64,000 bases of DNA from Planctomycetaceae bacterium. Its GTDB lineage: Bacteria; Planctomycetota; Planctomycetia; Planctomycetales; Planctomycetaceae. Positions 1 to 12,713 of this stretch are shown one piece after another. How positions within the stretch are numbered: the stretch's first letter is position 1; each line of letters starts with the position of its first letter. Under the pieces are notes generated by a model. That model did not search any database. It was not told where the DNA came from and saw only the letters and a program-made list of their open reading frames with translations. A program made the position numbers and the translations under genes. Where the stretch lies: assembly GCA_041398865.1 (NCBI GenBank), contig JAWKTY010000017.1:71499-135498 (forward strand), given 5' to 3'.

Positions 1-2
1 AC

Positions 3-3000
3 ACGGCGTACTGGCGAGGAGCACCCGTTCAGGTTTCAGGCATCTTTCTGGATGAAATGAGCAACGACTTGGCAGATGTGGGCTACTATCAGGCACTGCG
101 AGACCACATCGCAGCAAAGAGCGGCACGGCGTCCACGATCGGCAATCCGGGAACAACCTTTGTGAACGATTCCAGCAACGGTACGTCCGGGTTCACCGTC
201 GCCGACTATTCCACTGTATTCGACACGCTGGTGACATTCGAAAGCACGGGCACTGAGTACCGCACGAACTACACTCAGCCGTCCTGGGTGAACGATCTTT
301 CCGCCGACCATTTTGCTCACATCATCCATACCGAATCCACCGGCTCGGATGTGGAGATGGATCTGCAACTGGCCGTAGCTCGTAAAGCCGGAATGGTCTA
401 CATCACTCAGGATGCACTCGGCAATCCATACGATGTCCTGCCCGACTGGTGGACTTCAACTGCGACCATCACCGCAACACTTTCCGCGCCGGCGACTCAG
501 GTTGTCACGATCGATCTGGGAACATCCGGCAGTGCCACGATCACTGACGACTACACCGGATCGTCTAATCAGATCGTGATTCCGATCGGAGAAACTCAGG
601 GAACGGCCGCCGTCACCGCCGTTGATGATACGGTCGTGGAAGCCGACGAAACCATCATTATTGATGTGACATCCGTCACGAATGCTACGGAATCCGGAAC
701 GCAGCAGGTCACAACCACGATTCTGGACAACGACACGGCTGCTCTGAATATCACTCTGGATACCACGTCGATCGCGGAAACAGCCGGTACCGGAGCCATC
801 GTCGCCACAATTACCCGCAACACAGACACAACCGGCCCTCTGACCGTGACTCTGCTGACCAGCGATGGCAGCGAAGTGACCGTGCCGGTCAGCGTGGATA
901 TTCCTGCCGGTCAGTCATTTGTGACGGTTAGTCTGGATGTGATTGATGACCAGCTGCTGGACGGAACTCAGACCGTCACGATTTCGGCGACAGCTGCCGG
1001 GTTCACGGATGCGACGGATATGGTTGATGTGCGCGATGACGAATTCCTCGCCACAGACATGCTGCTGAACGAAATCGTCATCGATCCGCCGGAGGCACTG
1101 GACACCGGCAATGAATATATTGAACTTCGAGGCACCGCGAACGGATTCCTGCCGGCCGACACCTATCTGGTGCTGCTGGAAGGTGACAGCGAAAGCGGTC
1201 CCGGAAACATTGATCATGTCTTCAGTCTGGGAGGAATGAGATTTGGAAGCAACGGTTACCTGGTCCTGTTGCAGGCCGGGTCTCCATTCACACCGGATGC
1301 TGCGTCCTCGGTCGTAACGGCCACGGGTTCCGGCTGGGGGACAACGTTCTCAAGTCGCACGACAGATATCGAAAACGGCAGTGTCAGCTTTCTGCTGATC
1401 CAGTCTGCAGCAGCACCGGTCCCCGACACCGATACCGACACGAATGACGACGGAACTCTGGACGGAATCACCTGGACGATTCACGATTCAATCGGCAACA
1501 TTGACGGCGGAGCCTCAGATACGGCCTACGGCGCCATCAATGCCAGCGGAAACGGCAATGGTCTGATTCCGACCGGAGCAATTCTCGTCAATATCTCAGC
1601 TCAGCAGGGATTGAACGGTTCCTACCATCCCGACTATCTGGCTCGCATCGGCGACTCCACCGGGTCGGCTCAGACTGACTGGGTCTTCCCGGAACTCTCC
1701 GGAACGGCACCGAATTACAGCCTCGCTCACGAAGCCACAGTTCCCTACAACCTCGGCGGAGCACCTCTGAATCACCTGGGCGCCACCAACGCGTTCGTTC
1801 CGCCACAGGCCCTGTTTGTAGATATCACTCCGACTTCGTTTTCAGAAAACGGCGGCACAACGACGGCTCGAGTCTACCGGACGGCAGCAGATATTTCAGC
1901 TCCGCTGACGGTGACCCTGACCAGCAGTGACACAGGCGAAGCCACGGTTCCGGCCACCGTGACGATTGCTGCGGGCGAGTTCTTTGCGACGTTTTCTCTG
2001 GTCGCTGTGGATGATTTGATTGCTGACGGGACTCAGACGGTGACCATCACTGCATCCGCGGGAACGTTCGTGGACGGAACGGACGCGATTGATGTGACTG
2101 ATGATGAGACTCCGACTTTGACGGTGTCGATTGATCTGGCGTCAATGAGCGAAAACGGCGGGACTGCCACGGGTACGGTGACTCGCAATACGGGTTCATC
2201 CGGAGATCTGGTGGTCACTCTGTCCAGCAGTGACACCGGCGAAGCAACCGTTCCGGCCACGGTGACGATCCTTGACGGCCAGACTTCAGCGACCTTCACC
2301 ATCGCGGCGGTTGACGATGCGGTGGCAGACGGGATTCAGACAGTGACCATCACGGCGGTGGCGGCTACGTTTGCAGACGGGACGGATACGATTGATGTCA
2401 CCGACGATGAAACTCCGGCCCTGACACTGGCGATTGATCTGGCATCGATGAGCGAAAGCGGCGGGACCGCCACGGGAACGGTGACTCGGAATACGGGTTC
2501 GACGGGTGATCTGGTGGTGACTCTGTCCAGCAGTGACACCGGAGAAGCGACGGTTCCGGCCACGGTGACGATTCCGGATGGTCAGACATCAGCGACGTTC
2601 GTAATCACGGCCGTGGACGATGCCGTTCTGGATGGGACTCAGACGGTGACCATCACGGCAGCGGCGGGCGGCTTTGCTGACGGAACAGACACTGTGGATG
2701 TGACGGATGATGAAGTCGCCGCAACGGGTGTGCTGATCAATGAAATCGATTCCGACACGACCGGAACGGATGTTCTGGAGTTTGTCGAACTGTTCGGCAA
2801 TCCCCATGGGTTCCTGGACGGTTATGTTCTGGTGTTCTTCAACGGCAGCAATGACCTGTCGTATGCGGCCTTTGATCTGGACGGCTTCAAGCTGAATGCG
2901 GAAGGTTATTTCGTGGCCGGAAATACGGCCGTCACGAACGTGAATCTGGTGTTTGCGGATAACTTCCTGCAGAACGGTGCCGATGCGGTGGCTGTGTATC

Positions 3001-6000
3001 AGGCAAATGCCGCAGACTTCCCCAACGGCACAGCGGTCACCACCACAAACCTGGTCGATGCTGTCGTCTACGACACCGATGATGCGGACGACGCAGGTCT
3101 GCTGGTCCTGCTGAACGGCGGAGAACCGCAGCTGAACGAAAATGCCACAGGAGCCAAGGACACCCAGTCGCTGCAGCGTCTGCCGAACGGATCCGGTGGA
3201 GCTCGCAACACGTCAACCTATGGCCTGGCCACTCCGACGCCCGGTGCCGAAAACGCGGCTGATCCGACGCTGACGGTCACGATCGATCTGCCCGGCATCA
3301 GTGAAAACGGCGGAACAGCCACCGGCACGGTCACTCGTTCCGGAACAACCTCGGGTGATCTGGTGGTGAATCTGTCCAGCAACGATACCGGCGAAGCCAC
3401 GGTTCCGGCCACGGTCACGATTCCGGATGGTCAGACGTCGGCGACGTTCACGATTACAGCAGTTGATGATGCGGTGGTGGATGGAACTCAGACCGTCACG
3501 ATCACGGCGGCGTCAGCAACCTTTGTGGACGGGACGGACACCATTGATGTGACCGATGATGATGTCGCCACGCTGACGCTGTCGATTGACCTGGCGTCAA
3601 TCAGCGAAAACGGCGGGACCGCCACGGGTACGGTCACTCGCAATACGAGTTCATCCGGTGATCTGGTGGTGAATCTGTCCAGCAACAATACCGGAGAAGC
3701 GACGGTTCCGGCCACGGTCACGATTCTCGACGGTCAGACATCTGCAACGTTACCATCACCGCGGTTGATGACTCGGTGGTGGATGGCACTCAGACCGTGA
3801 CGATCACCGCGGCGTCCGCCGGCTTCGTTGACGGCAGCAGTTCCGTGGATGTGACGGACGATGATGTTGCCACGCTGACGCTGTCGATTGACCTGGCGTC
3901 CATGAGCGAAAACGGCGGGACCGCGACGGGCACGGTGACACGGAATACAGGGTCCTCCGGTGACTTGGTTGTCACTCTGTCCAGCAATGACGCCAGCGAA
4001 GCCACAGTTCCGGCGACGGTGACGATTCCGGACGGTCAGACATCGGCGACGTTTACCATCACAGCTGTTGACGATGCGGTGGTGGATGGAACTCAGACCG
4101 TGACGATCACGGCGGCGTCCGGAGTCTTCGTGGATGGAACGGATACGATTGATGTGACCGATGATGATGTTGCCACGCTGACGCTGTCGATTGACCTGGC
4201 GTCGATGAGCGAAAACGGCGGGACCGCCACGGGCACCGTGACTCGCAATACGGGGTCCTCCGGCGACTTAGTGGTCACTCTGTCCAGCAATGACACCAGC
4301 GAAGCCACAGTTCCGGCGACGGTGACGATTCCGGACGGTCAGACATCGGCGACGTTTACCATCACAGCTGTTGACGATGCGGTGGTGGATGGAACTCAGA
4401 CCGTGACGATCACGGCGGCGTCCGGAGTCTTCGTGGATGGAACGGATACGATTGATGTGACCGATGATGATGTTGCCACGCTGACGCTGTCGATTGACCT
4501 GGCGTCGATGAGCGAAAACGGCGGGACCGCCACGGGCACCGTGACTCGCAATACGGGGTCCTCCGGCGACTTAGTGGTCACTCTGTCCAGCAATGACACC
4601 AGCGAAGCCACGGTTCCGGCGACCGTCACGATTCTCGATGGCCAGACATCGGCAACGTTCACGATCACCGCGGTTGACGATGCGGTGGTGGATGGAACTC
4701 AGGCCGTGACGATCACGGCGGCGTCCGGAGTCTTCGTGGATGGAACGGATACGATTGATGTGACCGATGATGATGTCGCCACGCTGACGCTGTCGATTGA
4801 CCTGGCGTCGATGAGCGAAAACGGCGGGACCGCCACGGGTACGGTGACTCGGAATACAGGGGCGACCGGCGACTTGGTGGTGAACCTGTCCAGCAACGAT
4901 ACCGGCGAAGCGACGGTTCCGGTGACGGTCACGATTCTCGACGGCCAGACATCCGCGACGTTCACAATCACCGCGGTTGACGATGCAGTGGTGGATGGCA
5001 CTCAGACTGTCACGATCACCGCGGCGGCCGGAGTCTTCGTGGATGGAACGGATACGATTGATGTGACGGATGACGAAACTCCCACGCTGACGCTGTCGAT
5101 TGATCTGGCGTCAATGAGCGAAAATGGTGGGACCGCGACGGGCACGGTCACTCGGAATACGGGCTCGACGGGCGATCTGGTGGTGACTCTGTCCAGCAAT
5201 GACACCAGCGAAGCCACGGTTCCGGCCACGGTGACGATTCTTGACGGCCAGACGTCAGCGACTTTCACGATCACCGCGGTTGATGATGCCGTGGTGGATG
5301 GAACTCAGACGGTGTCCATTACCGCAGCAGCCGCTACATTCGCCGACGGAACCGACAGCATTGATGTGACTGATGATGAAGTTGCGACACTGACTTTGAC
5401 TTTCGATTCGATCTCGATCAGTGAGAATGGTGGGATCGCCACGGGAACGGTGACTCGGAATACCGGTACCTCCGGTGCGCTGGTGGTCAGTCTGTTCGTG
5501 GATGATGGCTCCGAGGCCACTGTGCCTGTGAGTGTCTCAATTCCTGATGGCAGTGCCTCAGCGACATTCTCGGTCACGGGGCTCAATGATTCTATTGTCG
5601 ATGGAACTCAGGTCGTGACGGTTCGAGCCGAAGCGGCGGGACTTGTGGCAGCAGAGGCGACTCTGGACGTAACGGATGTCGATTCCGCGAAGGTCAGCAT
5701 CGCCGGCATTCAGAATGCCCATGAACTTGGGCCTCAGAATGGCCGCTTCATGGTCTCGCTGTCCAGGGCTGCCGAACAGGACGTCGTCGTCAGTTACACG
5801 GTGAATGGCACAGCAACCAGCGGTGTTGACTTTACGGTGTTGAGTGGTCAGGTGACGATTTCCGGCGGTCAACTGTCAGCTCTGATTGATGTTCAGGTCA
5901 TTGATGACTTTTTCGCTGAGATCACGGAAACCGTCAATCTGACTCTGGGAACGGTCACCGCAGTCGGAGATGTTTCACTGGAAGAGACTCAAGAGTCGGC

Positions 6001-6934
6001 TGGCATCCTGCTGTTGAACGACGACCTGAATGCAATCGACGTCAGTCCGGCCACGGTGACGGTCTCGGAAAACGGTACCACGGCAACATTCAGCGTTAGG
6101 CTGAAGGCACAGCCAACAGCCAACGTCGTTGTTCAGGTGAACAGCAGCGACGTGGGCGAAGCAGCAGTCTCCACCGCGACACTCACCTTCACCCCGGCCA
6201 ACTGGAACGTGGCTCAGACGGTAACCGTGACCGGGATTGATGACGCTGTGGTGGACGGAGCTCAGAATACGGACATCGTGCTCACAGTTGATGGCCCGTC
6301 GTCTGCTGTCGAATTCCGGAACGCCCCGGCGGCCATTGTGAACGTTATCACGGAAGATAATGACGCCGCCGGAACAGCGAGGCTGGACGATATCACGTTT
6401 TACAATGTTGATGCGGTTCTGGAAGACGGGCTGAGTCCCGACAGGACCGGCCAAAGGTCAATCATTCGACATGTTCAGGTGGTCCTTGACGGGCTGGTAA
6501 CGATCCCAACCGGCCCGGTCACGGACGGCACGTTTGTCGTGACCAATACAACGCTGGGCACCACGATTGGCCTGACCGTCACATCGTCGTCTCAGGTCGG
6601 AAATCGCACCATTGTGGTGCTGTCCTTCACCAGCGGGACAGATCCGCTGGCCGTCGGGTCGCTGGCTGATGGTCGGTACCGGCTGGACATTGACGGCGGC
6701 TCTCTGTTCGACGCTGATAATTCGGGAACCGTTGGCGGGCTCCGAAGTGTGCAGTTCCATCGTTTTTATGGTGACGCCGATGGCGACGGAGACGTGGACA
6801 ACGGCGACTACGGTCGATTACTGCAGGCTGCATCCGGAAACGTTGCCTTCAGATCAGCCTTTGACCGCGACGATGACAACGACCTGTTTGACGAGCTTCT
6901 TGGGTTCAAGGCTCATTACGGAAAGAGAATCTGA
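3..6934 (+). CDS. Giant extracellular/surface repeat protein (spherulin-4/GH135-like domain, Calx-beta-like repeats, two lamin-tail-like domains, C-terminal dockerin-like motif); 5' end outside window; split by a 1-bp frameshift at ~3750
   Basis: Frame of ORF 57..3800 is open back to position 3 (TAYWRGAPVQVSGIFLDEM). ORFs 57..3800 and 3776..6934 carry the same ~101-aa repeat. At 3744-3754 gca acg tt acc lacks one base relative to the other repeats (ATFTIT). Ends FHRFYGDADGDGDVDNGD...AFDRDDDND...HYGKRI. Confidence 0.88.
3265..5690 (+). repeat. Intragenic tandem array of ~303-bp (101-aa) Calx-beta-like units
   Basis: Unit TLTLSIDLASMSENGGTATGTVTRNTG...DDAVVDGTQTVTITAA...DVTDDD recurs every 303 nt (compare lines 4081 and 4381, offset 303). 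Further copies occur upstream at ~730-1040 and ~1810-2715. Confidence 0.95.
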
Positions 6935-7118
6935 AACCGGCGGGTATGTGAGCCGTGCGGGTTTCCGACAGCCCGAGGCCTGAGAAACCTTTCCGGTTTC
7001 GATCAAATGAGTGAAAAATGATTTACCCCGATCCGACGCCGCGGGACACTGGTGATTCCGTGGCACGGTCATCAGTCCCTTTGATCCACCACAACAGTCA
7101 ACCTTGAAGACTTCCCCT

Positions 7119-7823
7119 ATGAAACTCCAACTTTCCTGTTGCATGGTTCTGGTCTGTGCGCTGGTCAATGCCGTTCAGGCGGACCTTGTGCTTGACCTGC
7201 GACTCGATGATGGCACCCGAGCCCGCAATGTGGCCTCTGGGGGCAGTGCATTCGTGGATCTGTTTCTGGTGGACACGGACGGAACTTCCTCGGTGTCGAG
7301 CAGCGGTGGTCTGATCGGCGGCGGCGGGAAGCTGCTTGCCACGGGCTCCGCCTCGGGATCGGCAGCGTTGTCGTTCGCCAACCCCGGATTCGACTTTATT
7401 GTTGACTCACCTGTTCTGGGCCTGACGGATCCAGGCATCGCTTCCGTTCAGGCAGCTGCCTTCCTCTTCCCCGCGCCTGCTTTCGCTCCGGGGGCCGGTG
7501 TCACGTCACTCGCCGGACTTGGTGCAATGGAAGTGTTTCTTGGAAGGTTTGCGGTCACAGCGACTGGCGGTTTGGGAGACACATTGACGTTGACCCCTGA
7601 TCGCCTCGTCGACTTCAACGGAAATACAGATGGGCTGGGAGACCCCCTCGACGGACTGGCTTCCTTCATCAATTCGTCAGCAACGGAATCGGTGGTTCTG
7701 ACCGTCGACGCAGCGGCTGTTCCGGAGCCATCGACTCTGCTGGTCGCCACGCTGTTGGGTGTGGGTTATGTCAGCCGTCGCCGGCTCGGTTCGCTGCGGA
7801 CGCAGGAAACTGCCGTTTCGTGA
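7119..7823 (+). CDS. PEP-CTERM sorting-domain protein
   Basis: N-terminal signal peptide (MKLQLSCCMVLVCALVNAVQA); C-terminal VPEPSTLLVATLLGVGYVSRRR (PEP + transmembrane helix + basic tail). Confidence 0.93.
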   Translation: MKLQLSCCMVLVCALVNAVQADLVLDLRLDDGTRARNVASGGSAFVDLFLVDTDGTSSVSSSGGLIGGGGKLLATGSASGSAALSFANPGFDFIVDSPVLGLTDPGIASVQAAAFLFPAPAFAPGAGVTSLAGLGAMEVFLGRFAVTATGGLGDTLTLTPDRLVDFNGNTDGLGDPLDGLASFINSSATESVVLTVDAAAVPEPSTLLVATLLGVGYVSRRRLGSLRTQETAVS

Positions 7824-7836
7824 TGTCGCGTGATTC

Positions 7837-9588
7837 ATGAACAGTTCCTTCCTGACGAAACACTGGCGCTGGTGGCTGCTGTTTGCGGCGGCCGCGCTGG
7901 CCTATTCGGGAATGCTGTTCGAATACGGTGCCCGGCTGTGGGCGAAAGACTATTTCCGGTTCTATCCGGTCTACGTGATTGCCGTCCTGTATTTGACGTT
8001 CAGTCGCAGTCAGGAGGACGAATGGCCGGAACGATTCACATGGAGAATCCAGCCGCTCACCTTGGGCCTGGGACTCCTTTCCCTGGCAGCATCCACCTGG
8101 TTCTGGTCGCCGCTGCTGGCGGCGGTTTCGCTGTTGCTGACCGGTGATTCACTTCTCAGCTCCCTCCCGAACGCTCGGCGAAGCTGGCGGCTGCTGTTCC
8201 TTCTGATCGCTCTGCCACTGGGTATGGACGAACGGCTGGTCCTGGAACTCAGACTGGCTTCGTCGTCGGCGGCCAGCCTCCTGCTCGACCGAATCGACGT
8301 CCCGCATGTTGCTCGCGGCAATGTTCTTCAGCTGCCGGGCCGACAGCTGTTTGTTGAGGATGCCTGCAGCGGCATCAGTTCGGTCTACCTCCTGCTGGCG
8401 TCGACAGCGCTGGTCGTCGTGGGAGCTCGCATGAGAATGGTCCGAGCAGTCCCGCTGCTGGCTTCGGCTGTCTGGTGGGCTGGTGTTGCGAATGTGTTGA
8501 GAATCGTGGCCATCGTTCTGGCCGACCATTTTCTGAAGATCGATCTCACGACGGGATGGCAGCACGAAGCCGTCGGAATTGGTGTTCTGCTGCTGGCTCT
8601 GCTGGGAATCGGCAGCACATGGTGTTTTCTGAATCTGCTGACGTCTGCCGTGAATAATGACAAAGTCGATGCGCAGTCCGGCTCGCTGAATCTTACTCCT
8701 GCAATCCTGTGGAATGTCATCACGACAGAAAACCAGGCAATCCTGCAGGGTCTGCAGTCGAACGGGTTTTCCGTCCGGACCAGTCGTTCATTTTTGCTGA
8801 CAGCGCTGACCCTGCTGATGTTGGTTTACGGTCATATATACTGGCTGGCCGTAGCTCGAGCCAGCGGGCTGCTGACTCAGTCGTCTCCTTCGGTTTCCGA
8901 CCGCTCAGTTCCTTCCACCGAGTCACCTGTCGAACTGAACAGCTTCGACCAGAATTCCTTCGCTCAGCTTCCCGAAATCAGCGTCACAGATTTTCAGCGC
9001 TCGCTGGTGTCGGCAGCCGACTCATCCCGATCTGTTCATGCCGTGAAATGGTCTCTGACAACTTCACAGGGGCCGTGTCGGGTCACGTTGTCGGGGCCGT
9101 TTTCCGGATGGAACGACGTGAGCAGTTCCTACCGGGCCGCTGGCTTTGGACTTCAGTATTCGGAGGTGGATTTCGTTCCTGGACAGGTCCCGTTGAAAGC
9201 GCTGATGTCATCGCAGCTGTCGAATCCCGAAGGAATTTACTCGGATGTCCATTTTTGCTTTGTGTCGCATACCGGCGACCTGAAGACCGCGCACGTCGCT
9301 GACACGGGCACCGGTCTGCGAGACCAGATTGCGGCAAGGCTGGAACAGAATCTGGCTCCGGACAGGACCGGAGTGTGGTGGTGCCTGGAACTGAGCTCGG
9401 AACATCACACGGCTGTCCTGGAATCGGAATTCCGCGGGCGGAAACAACTGTTCGGTGACCTGCTGAAGGTGATCGTGCGGCAATGGAAGACCGATCAGCG
9501 CCGATCGGGCGAAACTTCTGCAGCGCCTGTCGCCGACGAGTTCCCTCAAACGGATCCGGGGCAGGTTCAGCAGGAGGCGACTCAGTGA
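7837..9588 (+). CDS. Exosortase (EpsH/archaeosortase family) with C-terminal extension
   Basis: Multi-TM N-terminal half with VEDACSGISS (catalytic Cys), ANVLRI (Arg) and WQHEAVG (His); directly follows a PEP-CTERM gene. Confidence 0.9.
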   Translation: MNSSFLTKHWRWWLLFAAAALAYSGMLFEYGARLWAKDYFRFYPVYVIAVLYLTFSRSQEDEWPERFTWRIQPLTLGLGLLSLAASTWFWSPLLAAVSLLLTGDSLLSSLPNARRSWRLLFLLIALPLGMDERLVLELRLASSSAASLLLDRIDVPHVARGNVLQLPGRQLFVEDACSGISSVYLLLASTALVVVGARMRMVRAVPLLASAVWWAGVANVLRIVAIVLADHFLKIDLTTGWQHEAVGIGVLLLALLGIGSTWCFLNLLTSAVNNDKVDAQSGSLNLTPAILWNVITTENQAILQGLQSNGFSVRTSRSFLLTALTLLMLVYGHIYWLAVARASGLLTQSSPSVSDRSVPSTESPVELNSFDQNSFAQLPEISVTDFQRSLVSAADSSRSVHAVKWSLTTSQGPCRVTLSGPFSGWNDVSSSYRAAGFGLQYSEVDFVPGQVPLKALMSSQLSNPEGIYSDVHFCFVSHTGDLKTAHVADTGTGLRDQIAARLEQNLAPDRTGVWWCLELSSEHHTAVLESEFRGRKQLFGDLLKVIVRQWKTDQRRSGETSAAPVADEFPQTDPGQVQQEATQ

Positions 9589-11132
9589 TTCGTTATCTGC
9601 TGACATTCAAGCTGTCGATTCGAGCTGCACTTCGGGGTCTGCCGGATTTCATTGCGGCGTACATGCGCAGCCGCCGCTTGCGGATGATTCTGCCTGCTCT
9701 GCCTGCCGTTCTGCTGACCGGGTTTCTGCTCAGCACCCTGCACCACTCGTCGGCTCCGGAATGGCGCAGCGAACTGCAGCAGAGGTTTGACGACCGCTGC
9801 AGGCAGGCACTGGCGGACGGAGATCTGAAGTCCGCGGAATTCAGTTTCTCCCGGCTGATGTCGATGACGAATGATCCCGTCCGGCAGACCTTCAATTTTG
9901 CGTCTCAATTGTACGAGCAGTCCCGGATTTCCCGGGAACCGTCCCTGACGTGGACAACGGCAGATCCGGACTTCGCGGTTCAGGATCCATGGGGACACCG
10001 CGCGCTCAGTCTGCTGCAGTCGATTGCTCCTCGACAGGGCACGCTGCCCGGTCATCCGGAGGCTCATCTGCTGCTGGCCGAACACTGGCAGTCACGTCAG
10101 CCGGAAACAGCCGTCACCAGACTTCACGTGCTGCAGCATCGTTATCGAGGCCGCCCCGGGGACACCGCATCGGCACTTGAATTGGCTCGATTCCTGTCCG
10201 AGCATCAATATCACCAGCACGCGGTGGAAGTCCTGCTTCCGCTGCAGCAGGAGAACGCTCAGGTCCAGCTTGCACTGGTGGCCGGCTACAATCGATTGCA
10301 GGATCATCGAACCGCCAGACGCTTTCTGAAGTCGGCAATTGACCTGCTGCAGCGGCAGATCGACGAGGTACCTCAGGACGCAGCAGTCCGAATCAGACTC
10401 AGTCAGGCTCTGGCCGCTGATGATCAGCTGCTGACTTCGATGCTGGTGCTGGCCGAAGGCTGTCGAACGTCGGGCCATGAAAACCTGGCGGATCTGCTGA
10501 TTGAACGATACTCGATCTGGCTGTCTCTGATGTCACCTCAGAAGGTGCGCCGTCAGCTGAACGACATCCAGCTGGCCCTACATCCTCAGCAGCCGACTCC
10601 TGCAGATTCGGAATCCTACCCGCTGCGGACACTGACGTTGTCCGGTGGAGTTTCCGTTGAGCTGCCGGAGCCGATTGAGCAGTTTCATCAGGCACTCATC
10701 AATGGCGAAGGTCGCTGGCTGGTTCCGCTGCTGCTTGGGACTGACCACGCTTCGCTGGGTGAATACGAAACGGCAGTTGAGCTGCTGACCGAAGCGATCC
10801 GGGAAAAACCGGACCATCCGGTCGCAGCGAACAATCTGGCATGGACGCTCCTGCAGCTGCACTCAACGTCTGACCGAAAGCACCTTCCCGCCGACAGGGA
10901 TGATCGGCGGAAACTGGAGACAGCATGGCAGTACGCGAACATCGCTGTTGCGGAATGTCCGGGCCGAGTCTCCTTCCGGGAAACTCGAGGGATGGTCGCA
11001 GCAGCCACAGGACACTGGCAGGTGGCGTTCAATGATCTGCAGACCTGTTCGGATGCCGGAATGCAGTCTGTGGAAGTTCAAACCCGCCTCACTCAGGCAT
11101 GGCGAAACTCGGCAACGATGTTCAAAGAGTAA
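9585..11132 (+). CDS. TPR-repeat protein with N-terminal membrane anchor
   Basis: GTG start overlapping the exosortase TGA (GTGA at 9585-9588) with GGAGG upstream; TPR-like AVELLTEAIREKPDHPVAANNLAWTLL and FRETRGMV motifs. Confidence 0.8.
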   Translation: MIRYLLTFKLSIRAALRGLPDFIAAYMRSRRLRMILPALPAVLLTGFLLSTLHHSSAPEWRSELQQRFDDRCRQALADGDLKSAEFSFSRLMSMTNDPVRQTFNFASQLYEQSRISREPSLTWTTADPDFAVQDPWGHRALSLLQSIAPRQGTLPGHPEAHLLLAEHWQSRQPETAVTRLHVLQHRYRGRPGDTASALELARFLSEHQYHQHAVEVLLPLQQENAQVQLALVAGYNRLQDHRTARRFLKSAIDLLQRQIDEVPQDAAVRIRLSQALAADDQLLTSMLVLAEGCRTSGHENLADLLIERYSIWLSLMSPQKVRRQLNDIQLALHPQQPTPADSESYPLRTLTLSGGVSVELPEPIEQFHQALINGEGRWLVPLLLGTDHASLGEYETAVELLTEAIREKPDHPVAANNLAWTLLQLHSTSDRKHLPADRDDRRKLETAWQYANIAVAECPGRVSFRETRGMVAAATGHWQVAFNDLQTCSDAGMQSVEVQTRLTQAWRNSATMFKE

Positions 11133-12713
11133 TCGTCGTCGCCAGTTTTTTGCGAATGTATTCCACCGCTGCCTTCAGCTGAGTGTCCTCGAAATCATCA
11201 TCGGTCGTTGAGCCTTCTGCGGTGGTTTTTTCGGACGCTGCTTTGTCTGGTGATTCCGGCGACTTCCCGCCACCTGCAGAATCCGTCGATTCCGCTTCGC
11301 TCGATTCCGGTTTTGCGGCACCCCTGTTGTCCGGCTCGCCGGTTTCACCAGCCGCAGTGTCAGCGGGCGCTGAAGTCTCGTTCTTCGCGTCAGCAGACGG
11401 CGGTGCGGACGTGCTGACGGATTCGTTTTCGTCGGGAGCGGCGCTCCGAACCTCGTGTTTCAGAGTATCCCGATGTGTTCGACTGCGATCCCACGCCATC
11501 CACTGACCCTGAGAAAACGGAATCAGGAAACCGTCATCCGGAGTCACGCCCCAGGCATCCGATGGCTTCATGTTTGGAAACCGGTGAATGTTTTCGCCAC
11601 TGGGCCGGTGATAGCTGGCCGTTGTCAGCTTCAGTGCGCTCTGGCCGCCTTCCATCTGAATGACGTTCTGCACGCTGCCTTTTCCCCAGGTCCGTTCTCC
11701 CACAATCACCGCTCGGTGGTTGTCCTGCAGGCAGGCGCTCAGCACTTCGCTGGCCGACGCGCTGTAATGATTCACAAGGACCGCCATGGGAACGGTTGGA
11801 AACGTTTCCGCTTCCCGAGCTGTCCATGAACGTTCTGCAACATTGCGACCCCGGACGCTGACAATTTCGCCTTCCGTCAGAAACATGTCTGCAATTTCGA
11901 TTGCTGATTCCAGGAGTCCGCCAGGGTTGAACCGCAGATCCAGAACCAGTCCCTTCAGATCCTGTTTGACCAGGGCGTCGACTGTCGAGCGCACTTCTTC
12001 GGCGGTGAATCGACTGAAGTGAGAGATCCGCAGAATCGCGATATGGTCTTCGTTCGGCAGAAAGTAGTCCCATTCGTCCCGGTCATTGTACTGATAGCCG
12101 CGAACGGTCGGTGCCTTAATCAGCTGCCGGACCAGAGTCATCTCTTCGGCTTCGCTGCGATCCGCGCGTTTGACTTTCAGCTGAACGGGTCGTCCGACCG
12201 GCCCCTGCAGTTGCCGGACAATTTCGTCCAGAGCCACGCCTTCCGTTGCCTTGCCCTCAACTTCCTGAATGACGTCTCCCGAACGAATGCCGGCTCGATA
12301 TGCCGGTGTCTGCGGCAGGGGCTGACCACCACCAGCTGGCCGTTGCGAACGTTGACCTGAACGCCAATCCCGCCGAATTCCTGTTCGACAATCTGCTGAA
12401 ACTGAGTGACGTCAGACGGAGGAATGTAGCTGGAATACTGATCCAGATGCGACATCATGCCGCGAATGGCTGCTTCGACCAGCTCCCGGCGATCAACGTC
12501 CCGCACGTAGTTCGATTCGATCTGCTGGAACGCGTCGACAAAGACGGACATCAGTTCATAGTCAGACGGCGATTTCTGAGGTACAGCATCTTCGCCGGAA
12601 ATATTTCCGAGGAACAGCAGAGCCGTCGCCGCGGGCAGGAATCGACACAGCAGGAGCGCATGAGAGGGGACTCCGGGAGGAGAAATTCGAAGGCGGGAAG
12701 ACGCAGGATACAC
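11122..12713 (-). CDS. S41 family carboxyl-terminal processing protease (frameshift at ~12319)
   Basis: N-terminal part LVEAAIRGMMSHLDQYS...GGIGVQV; C-terminal part LVLDLRFNPGGLL, SASASEV, GERTWGKGSVQ. One missing C in agc ccc tgc restores SPLPQTPAYRAGI. Confidence 0.9.

Follow-up and report, generated by a model that had tools for sequence, protein, structure and literature searches.

The subject of this study is a group of four co-directional genes on the + strand at positions 1-11132 of a 64,000-nucleotide stretch of DNA from a Planctomycetaceae bacterium (contig JAWKTY010000017.1; the whole stretch, in its full length, is called the window in the following). The genes encode, in this order, a giant protein, a small PEP-CTERM protein, an exosortase and a tetratricopeptide repeat (TPR) protein. 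On balance, we favour the interpretation that they constitute a surface-display cassette, in which the small protein is a predicted cohesin-like anchor that would hold the giant protein on the cell by its dockerin-like C-terminal tail. The cassette recurs in other loci, and its role is probably to tether big proteins to the surface of a double-membraned cell, with the binding being a prediction. An exosortase-anchored, cohesin-like tether had been proposed earlier from the sequence alone (called the original prediction below), and the predicted fold together with the conserved gene order make this the best reading of the results presented here.

The giant and the small gene are separated by 184 nucleotides (nt), and 13 nt lie between the small gene and the exosortase gene. 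The cassette is considered to end with the TPR gene, because the next gene in the 3' direction, encoding an S41 peptidase, converges on it from the minus strand and has no counterpart at that position in the relatives. The features of the cassette are the following.

3..6934, + strand: giant surface protein, secreted, with more than 2,300 residues (from Pfam and repeats); its N-terminus lies outside the window
6386..6754, + strand: immunoglobulin (Ig)-like domain of the conserved tail (DGLS..GQRSII..VQVVL..); canonical relatives match Pfam Big_5 there
6755..6931, + strand: diverged dockerin-like module with two Ca-loop/helix repeats (from alignment with Dockerin_1-positive tails)
6773..6808, + strand: loop 1, DADGDGDVDNGD (from alignment)
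6863..6895, + strand: loop 2, DRDDDNDLFDE (from alignment), one residue shorter than canonical
7119..7823, + strand: small PEP-CTERM protein, 234 residues (from sequence, Pfam and model)
7119..7181, + strand: signal peptide of the small protein
7182..7712, + strand: beta-sandwich of the small protein, cohesin-like in the AlphaFold model
7716..7784, + strand: PEP-CTERM sorting signal of the small protein
7837..9588, + strand: exosortase of the XrtU type, 583 residues (PF09721, NF033780)
8965..9489, + strand: XrtU C-terminal domain, residues 377-551 (NF033780)
9585..11132, + strand: TPR protein of about 515 residues, with GTG start and N-terminal membrane anchor; last gene of the cassette

Conservation of the gene pair

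Fetching through the small protein gave twelve independent loci (the window, L001, L002, L004, L007 and L009-L015), in which the small proteins are 23-70% identical to each other. In every one of these loci, a tail-bearing protein is encoded directly upstream on the same strand. The bodies of these upstream proteins are unrelated, comprising Calx-beta, cadherin, G8/CEMIP beta-helix and GEVED/CLIPPER architectures with lengths from 875 to more than 3,759 residues, and because the bodies differ, the tail is the only part that the proteins have in common. Wherever a homologue of the small gene occurs, the protein encoded before it ends in a stretch with 53-57% identity to the last ca 180 residues of the giant protein of the window.

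The association was also examined in the reverse direction, using 80 metagenome loci that were fetched through the tail alone. Sixty-three of them, with at least 800 bp downstream of the tail, were eligible. A PEP-CTERM open reading frame (ORF) of 215-255 residues follows directly after the tail in 17 of the 63 loci (13 of them non-redundant), while elsewhere in the 448 kb of tail-selected loci only three PEP-CTERM ORFs are found, two of which are tandem copies located behind the first one. With 17 cases directly after the tail against three elsewhere, a chance adjacency of the two genes is rejected. A scan of contigs with very specific tail patterns returned just two loci, both of which were already in the set.

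The original prediction had also called for the order of all four genes to be conserved. This is indeed the case in eight independent loci (the window, L001, L002, L004, L007, L010, L015 and L021-23, the last of which was found independently, through the tail), but in L011-L014 the exosortase and TPR genes do not adjoin the pair. The conserved unit is thus the tail-bearing protein plus the small PEP-CTERM protein, which the exosortase and the TPR protein accompany in only some lineages. That the two members of the pair are functionally linked can be regarded as very probable.

Some of the loci show individual arrangements. The clade formed by L011-L014, without an adjacent exosortase, has canonical dockerin repeats and small proteins that share a GFEWEY motif; the exosortase that acts on these small proteins is presumably encoded elsewhere. 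In L015 (2533-9580), a single small PEP-CTERM gene, followed by the exosortase and TPR genes, is preceded by two genes for tail-bearing proteins, one of 590 residues with Calx-beta and one of 1,645 residues with GEVED/CLIPPER domains, from which it appears that one socket may serve several cargos. Finally, at L038 6580-8220, L062 3146-5142 and L012 2455-3093, either two tandem PEP-CTERM genes follow the tail or an additional PEP-CTERM gene lies upstream of the giant gene.

The dockerin-like tail and the fold of the small protein

The giant protein contains no PEP-CTERM motif and terminates with ...FHRFYGDADGDGDVDNGDYGRLLQAASGNVAFRSAFDRDDDNDLFDELLGFKAHYGKRI followed by the stop codon. The lack of a sorting signal of its own and the presence of a duplicated calcium-binding loop at the end had both been pointed out before, and both are borne out, except that the second loop is not of full length. 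Two tandem segments of ca 22 residues with the Ca-loop/helix pattern of dockerins are located at the very end of the protein, but only loop 1 constitutes a full 12-residue DxDxDGxxDxxD motif, with Asp retained at positions 1, 3, 5, 9 and 12, while loop 2 (DRDDDNDL-FDE) is one residue shorter than in the canonical relatives.

A profile search with the tail gave matches in 2,539 protein clusters among 1.84 billion representatives, with E-values below 1e-10 for 674 of the clusters and below 1e-30 for 33, and the matching region is nearly always C-terminal. Canonical relatives obtained in this way pass the Dockerin_1 model of Pfam, with 30.8, 29.4 and 25.2 bits compared to a gathering threshold of 22.9, and the same tails also match Big_5. 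The tail of the window aligns column for column with these Dockerin_1-positive tails, such that the segments GDADGDGDVDNGDYGRLLQAASG and FDRDDDNDL-FDELLGFKAHYG fall on the canonical 22-residue repeats GDINGDRRVNIADFFQFRSAFG and FDYNGDGVINIIDFFQFRSRFG, respectively (alignment A4). A profile search with the tail against the PDB gave a Clostridium cellulolyticum dockerin (2vn6_B) as the sole relevant match, with a non-significant E-value of 1.1. By transitive homology, we assign the tail as a diverged dockerin. The conserved module is larger than that, as the dockerin-like part is preceded in it by the Ig-like Big_5 domain.

We next consider the small protein. It consists of a signal peptide (ending in ..AVQA, with DLVL following), a domain of ca 175 residues and the PEP-CTERM tail VPEPSTLLVATLLGVGYVSRRRL, in which a PEP motif, a hydrophobic helix and a basic cluster can be recognised. 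The Pfam model for PEP-CTERM (PF07589) gives 19.9 bits for the protein of the window, just below the cut-off of 20.7 bits, and 29 of the 30 members of the family match the model, with a best E-value of 8.6e-6. The family has few members and, apart from the sorting signal, is not matched by any Pfam or NCBIfam model.

An AlphaFold model based on 30 sequences has a predicted local distance difference test score (pLDDT) of 73.6 and a predicted template-modelling score (pTM) of 0.69, and it contains ten strands, to be compared with the nine-stranded flattened beta-sandwich (jelly-roll) that defines the cohesin fold. The strands that the original prediction had listed from the sequence coincide with those of this model. 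A Foldseek search against the PDB places two ScaE cohesins of Ruminococcus flavefaciens, 9gvb_A and 4iu2_A, at ranks 1 and 2 (E-value 2e-3, probability 1.00 and 0.99, template-modelling (TM) score 0.40/0.45), while at rank 4 it gives the cohesin 2vn5_A, with a TM score of 0.54 on the target, and at rank 5 another cohesin, 1qzn. Cohesins thus account for four of the five top matches and for 13 of the top 50, and the best of them have E-values of 2e-3 to 5e-3 and TM scores of 0.36-0.54. The cohesin-like fold proposed for the domain is accordingly what the fold search returns, with ScaE as the best match, on a model of medium confidence and with marginal scores.

A second line of evidence comes from the small PEP-CTERM proteins encoded at the equivalent place, behind dockerin tails, in other metagenome loci. 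The one in L028 reaches 23.2 bits with the Pfam Cohesin model, compared to a threshold of 24.1 (E-value 8.3e-5), and the one in L038 reaches 19.7 bits (E-value 1e-3). In the case of L038, where the gene is present in tandem, both copies match the model weakly. When only the mature domains are compared, the L028/L038-type group aligns with the family of the window with hhalign p-values of 1.7e-4 to 7e-4 over 112-149 columns, and with solved cohesins the same group gives E-values of 5e-4 to 2e-3. The strand 'G.s..VdlFL' is found in the same register in all three comparisons. These links are individually weak, and they all point to cohesin; as a chain of profile and model comparisons they suggest a cohesin-like domain and fall short of a proof of homology.

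The predicted tether and its alternatives

The exosortase matches PF09721 with 101.6 bits, well above the cut-off of 25.7, and the NCBIfam model for the XrtU C-terminal domain (NF033780) with 41.8 bits, at a cut-off of 40. The same domain scores 139.5 bits in the orthologue of L007, 112.7 in L021, 101.5 in L002, 57.9 in L004 and 55.9 in L015; it is absent in L010, and in L001 no match was found at 1e-8. Because the domain scores above the cut-off both in the window and in the orthologues, the enzyme is assigned by profile as exosortase U (XrtU) of NCBIfam. The exosortase of L010 (5055-6161) has just 368 residues and lacks the C-terminal domain, but its gene has kept the coupling to the TPR gene. 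Since the gene arrangement is retained in this locus, the C-terminal domain is not essential to it.

The membrane core of the enzyme comprises residues 17-262. Within it, the catalytic-type residues Cys177 (in FVEDACSG), Arg222 and His243 show no variation in seven cassette orthologues, and we take them to be the ones known to be conserved in exosortases and archaeosortases. It is predicted, with good confidence, that XrtU acts on the neighbouring small protein.

The start of the TPR gene is most likely the GTG codon at 9585, which overlaps the stop codon of the exosortase gene as GTGA and has an AGGAGG sequence at 9572..9577, 8 nt upstream. The same 4-nt overlap between the exosortase and TPR genes is found in relatives. 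The succession of an exosortase and a translationally coupled TPR protein, as originally described, is in this way substantiated by both the profile matches and the overlap. The TPR protein has an N-terminal hydrophobic membrane anchor, and with the PrsT model it scores 25.9 bits at a cut-off of 312, which is a generic likeness.

Taken together, these elements suggest the following mechanism. The giant adhesin-like protein would be exported, with the Big_5 domain and the dockerin-like module at its very C-terminal end. Sec would export the small protein as well, and the PEP-CTERM helix of the small protein would keep it in the inner membrane until the adjacent XrtU, probably together with the membrane-anchored, coupled TPR protein, cleaves it and sorts it to the surface. 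There, the cohesin-like domain would be displayed, and the sandwich would capture the calcium-loaded dockerin-like tail non-covalently. The giant protein would thereby be retained on the cell, much as the sortase-anchored ScaE holds the cellulosome of Ruminococcus. We infer the export of the giant protein, the cleavage by XrtU, the site of attachment, the binding of calcium and the cohesin-dockerin-type contact from the domain anatomy, the homology of the tail, the predicted fold, the assignment of the enzyme and the conservation of the neighbourhood, which are themselves observed.

It should be emphasised that a number of results weigh against this mechanism. On the side of the small protein, the Pfam Cohesin model (PF00963) matches none of the 30 family members at E<=10, hhalign comparisons of the family with three solved type I cohesins are not significant (p 0.04-0.13), and a profile search of the PDB with the family found no cohesin. 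A first AlphaFold model, based on 12 sequences, had a pLDDT of only 51 and gave no fold matches. For the second model, the Foldseek E-values are only 2e-3 to 3e-2, at TM scores of 0.36 to 0.54, and beta-sandwiches of pilins, S-layer proteins and CLIPPER domains score close behind the cohesins. On the side of the tail, that of the window gives no match to PF00404 (Dockerin_1) even at E<=10, and loop 2 has lost one residue, although positions 1, 3 and 5 are retained in it and position 12 is acidic.

Concerning the pair as a whole, about three quarters of the tail-bearing genes have no adjoining PEP-CTERM gene. Tails thus outnumber sockets, which is expected for a system of plugs and sockets and is also allowed by other explanations. 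A Mantel test for co-divergence with the small protein is significant both for the dockerin part (r 0.77) and for Big_5 (r 0.74). Because the former correlation is no stronger than the latter, the test does not discriminate between the readings, and the co-divergence of these sequences may reflect shared ancestry only. Finally, exosortases are not known to join their substrates to a particular acceptor.

Among the alternatives, the one that survives best accepts that the genes form one functional unit, but does not have the small protein as the receptor of the tail. It would instead be an independently sorted subunit of the surface or matrix, or an accessory factor for export or folding, and its likeness to cohesins would be that of any generic beta-sandwich. 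We consider this unlikely, while still taking it seriously. The lack of significant sequence similarity between the small-protein family and cohesins is in line with it, and so are the about equal fold-search scores of pilin, S-layer and other Ig-like sandwiches and the fact that co-divergence does not single out the dockerin. It is harder to reconcile with the tail alone being conserved among the upstream proteins, with the strong over-representation of cohesins among the top fold matches and with the Pfam Cohesin matches of same-position proteins in other loci.

In a second alternative, which we judge to be clearly less likely, the tail has another role, either as a calcium-dependent signal for folding or secretion or as a plug for a polysaccharide or for a cohesin encoded elsewhere, and the PEP-CTERM neighbour is an unrelated passenger of a surface-protein operon. 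PMC5244752, citing Peer et al. 2009, states that the function of dockerins outside cellulosomes is not known, which leaves room for such roles. The tail is moreover found in ca 2,500 clusters, and ca 75% of the genes that bear it lack a PEP-CTERM neighbour. That 17 of the 20 PEP-CTERM ORFs in the tail-selected loci lie directly after the tail, and that the tail is upstream in 12 out of 12 loci selected through the small protein, nevertheless argue against a mere passenger, and the ratio of many plugs to few sockets is the one that a cohesin-dockerin system would give.

Quite improbable, finally, is a covalent tether, in which XrtU, as a transpeptidase, would join the cleaved PEP-CTERM protein to the giant or to another acceptor in the envelope, in the manner of the pilin-specific sortases that are found beside their substrates, with the dockerin-like module only positioning the partners: a dedicated exosortase with invariant Cys, Arg and His beside a single PEP-CTERM substrate and a giant without a signal fits such a role, and exosortases not being known for another acceptor is compatible with it, but many lineages (L011-L014) have the pair without an adjacent exosortase.

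Returning to the non-covalent tether by a cohesin-like anchor, a tentative generalisation can be made. PEP-CTERM mini-cohesins could be the sockets, and the Ig-dockerin modules the plugs, of a general display system in Planctomycetes and possibly in other diderms, with the plugs being carried by thousands of unrelated giant adhesins and enzymes (the 2,539 clusters mentioned above). The lineage of the window would then be one in which the socket has an exosortase of its own, and no exosortase subtype before XrtU would have had both a single substrate and a biological purpose defined for it.

Known systems and further details of the window

The closest analogue of the proposed tether is ScaE of Ruminococcus flavefaciens (PDB 4iu2, 9gvb), which combines one cohesin and an LPXTG signal for a sortase, and binds the X-dockerin of ScaB. 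In both cases, there is a one-cohesin anchor (here cohesin-like by the model) with a C-terminal sorting signal for a membrane transpeptidase, and the dockerin of the partner is located at the extreme C-terminus behind an Ig-like or X module. The present system, in contrast, belongs to a diderm planctomycete and uses PEP-CTERM and an exosortase rather than LPXTG and a sortase, and its cargo is a Calx-beta adhesin-like giant and not a scaffoldin loaded with enzymes. The small protein has no detectable sequence similarity to ScaE, and the binding is here a prediction.

The type I dockerins (PF00404) of cellulosomal enzymes have in common with the tail the two tandem Ca-loop/helix repeats of ca 22 residues at the C-terminus. 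They differ in that loop 2 of the window is shorter, Asp-rich and without the Gly at position 6, that the tail of the window scores below the model, and that a Big_5 domain always precedes the module here. The XrtA-EpsH/PrsT systems (Haft et al. 2006, PMC1569441; Haft et al. 2012) share the PEP-CTERM signal, an associated TPR protein and an exosortase with eight transmembrane segments and conserved Cys, Arg and His. In those systems, however, one enzyme has many substrates and is located inside exopolysaccharide loci, whereas the enzyme considered here stands beside one substrate family and a dockerin-tailed giant, with no adjacent polysaccharide genes. The 'planctosome' proposed for Nemodlikiaceae (PMC6461901) is likewise a non-cellulosomal cohesin-dockerin assembly in Planctomycetes, but it has Pfam-recognisable cohesins in large multidomain proteins, a lamin-tail anchor and peptidase cargo, and neither a PEP-CTERM mini-cohesin nor an exosortase. 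A true cellulosome was also considered and rejected, as there is no multi-cohesin scaffoldin and no set of dockerin-bearing hydrolases; the anchor has a single cohesin-like domain, and the only enzyme-like part of the Calx-beta giant is Spherulin4-like.

In the literature that was searched, no paper was found to describe this arrangement, and in none of them does PEP-CTERM occur along with either dockerin or cohesin. The only paper found to contain both exosortase and cohesin treats them separately, and a search on XrtU gave nothing relevant. The reading best supported by the results above is a predicted cohesin-dockerin-type tether that is anchored through PEP-CTERM and exosortase and has its own XrtU.

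Two long-open questions meet in this arrangement, namely what the non-cellulosomal dockerins bind and which cellular function PEP-CTERM proteins and exosortases have. As one operon joins a cargo with a dockerin tail, a PEP-CTERM protein of cohesin-like shape and an exosortase of its own, both questions become testable with four genes. If the mechanism is correct, it would explain how planctomycetes keep giant adhesins on their surface without a Gram-positive wall, and it would make a modular system of surface display available for diderm bacteria.

Some further observations concern the giant protein. It is read as two ORFs on the + strand, 3..3800 and 3776..6934, and extends beyond the window on the 5' side. 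The gene is split in this way because one base is missing near 3751, within a 303-bp tandem repeat array: the repeat consensus is ACGTTCACCATC, compared to acgttaccatc in the window, such that TTCACC is read as ttacc. Public contigs matching 3300-4200 do not span the repeats in the frameshift region (3740-3800), and the frameshift is likely an assembly error. In Pfam, the protein matches Spherulin4-like (PF12138, E-value 2e-16) and Calx-beta (E-value 2e-21) domains, and it contains in addition tandem repeats of 101 residues. The Spherulin4-like domain, at 3-460 of the window, is located upstream of the Calx-beta repeats, and its presence suggests that the cargo may carry a glycan-active domain.

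A scan of 6800-11400 for promoters and terminators gave no more signals than shuffled sequence does. In the convergent gene that follows the cassette, encoding an S41 C-terminal processing peptidase (11122-12713, minus strand), two overlapping ORFs are found, a CtpB N-like piece at 12177..12713 and a Peptidase_S41 piece at 11122..12237, and this split may be the result of a single-base assembly error.

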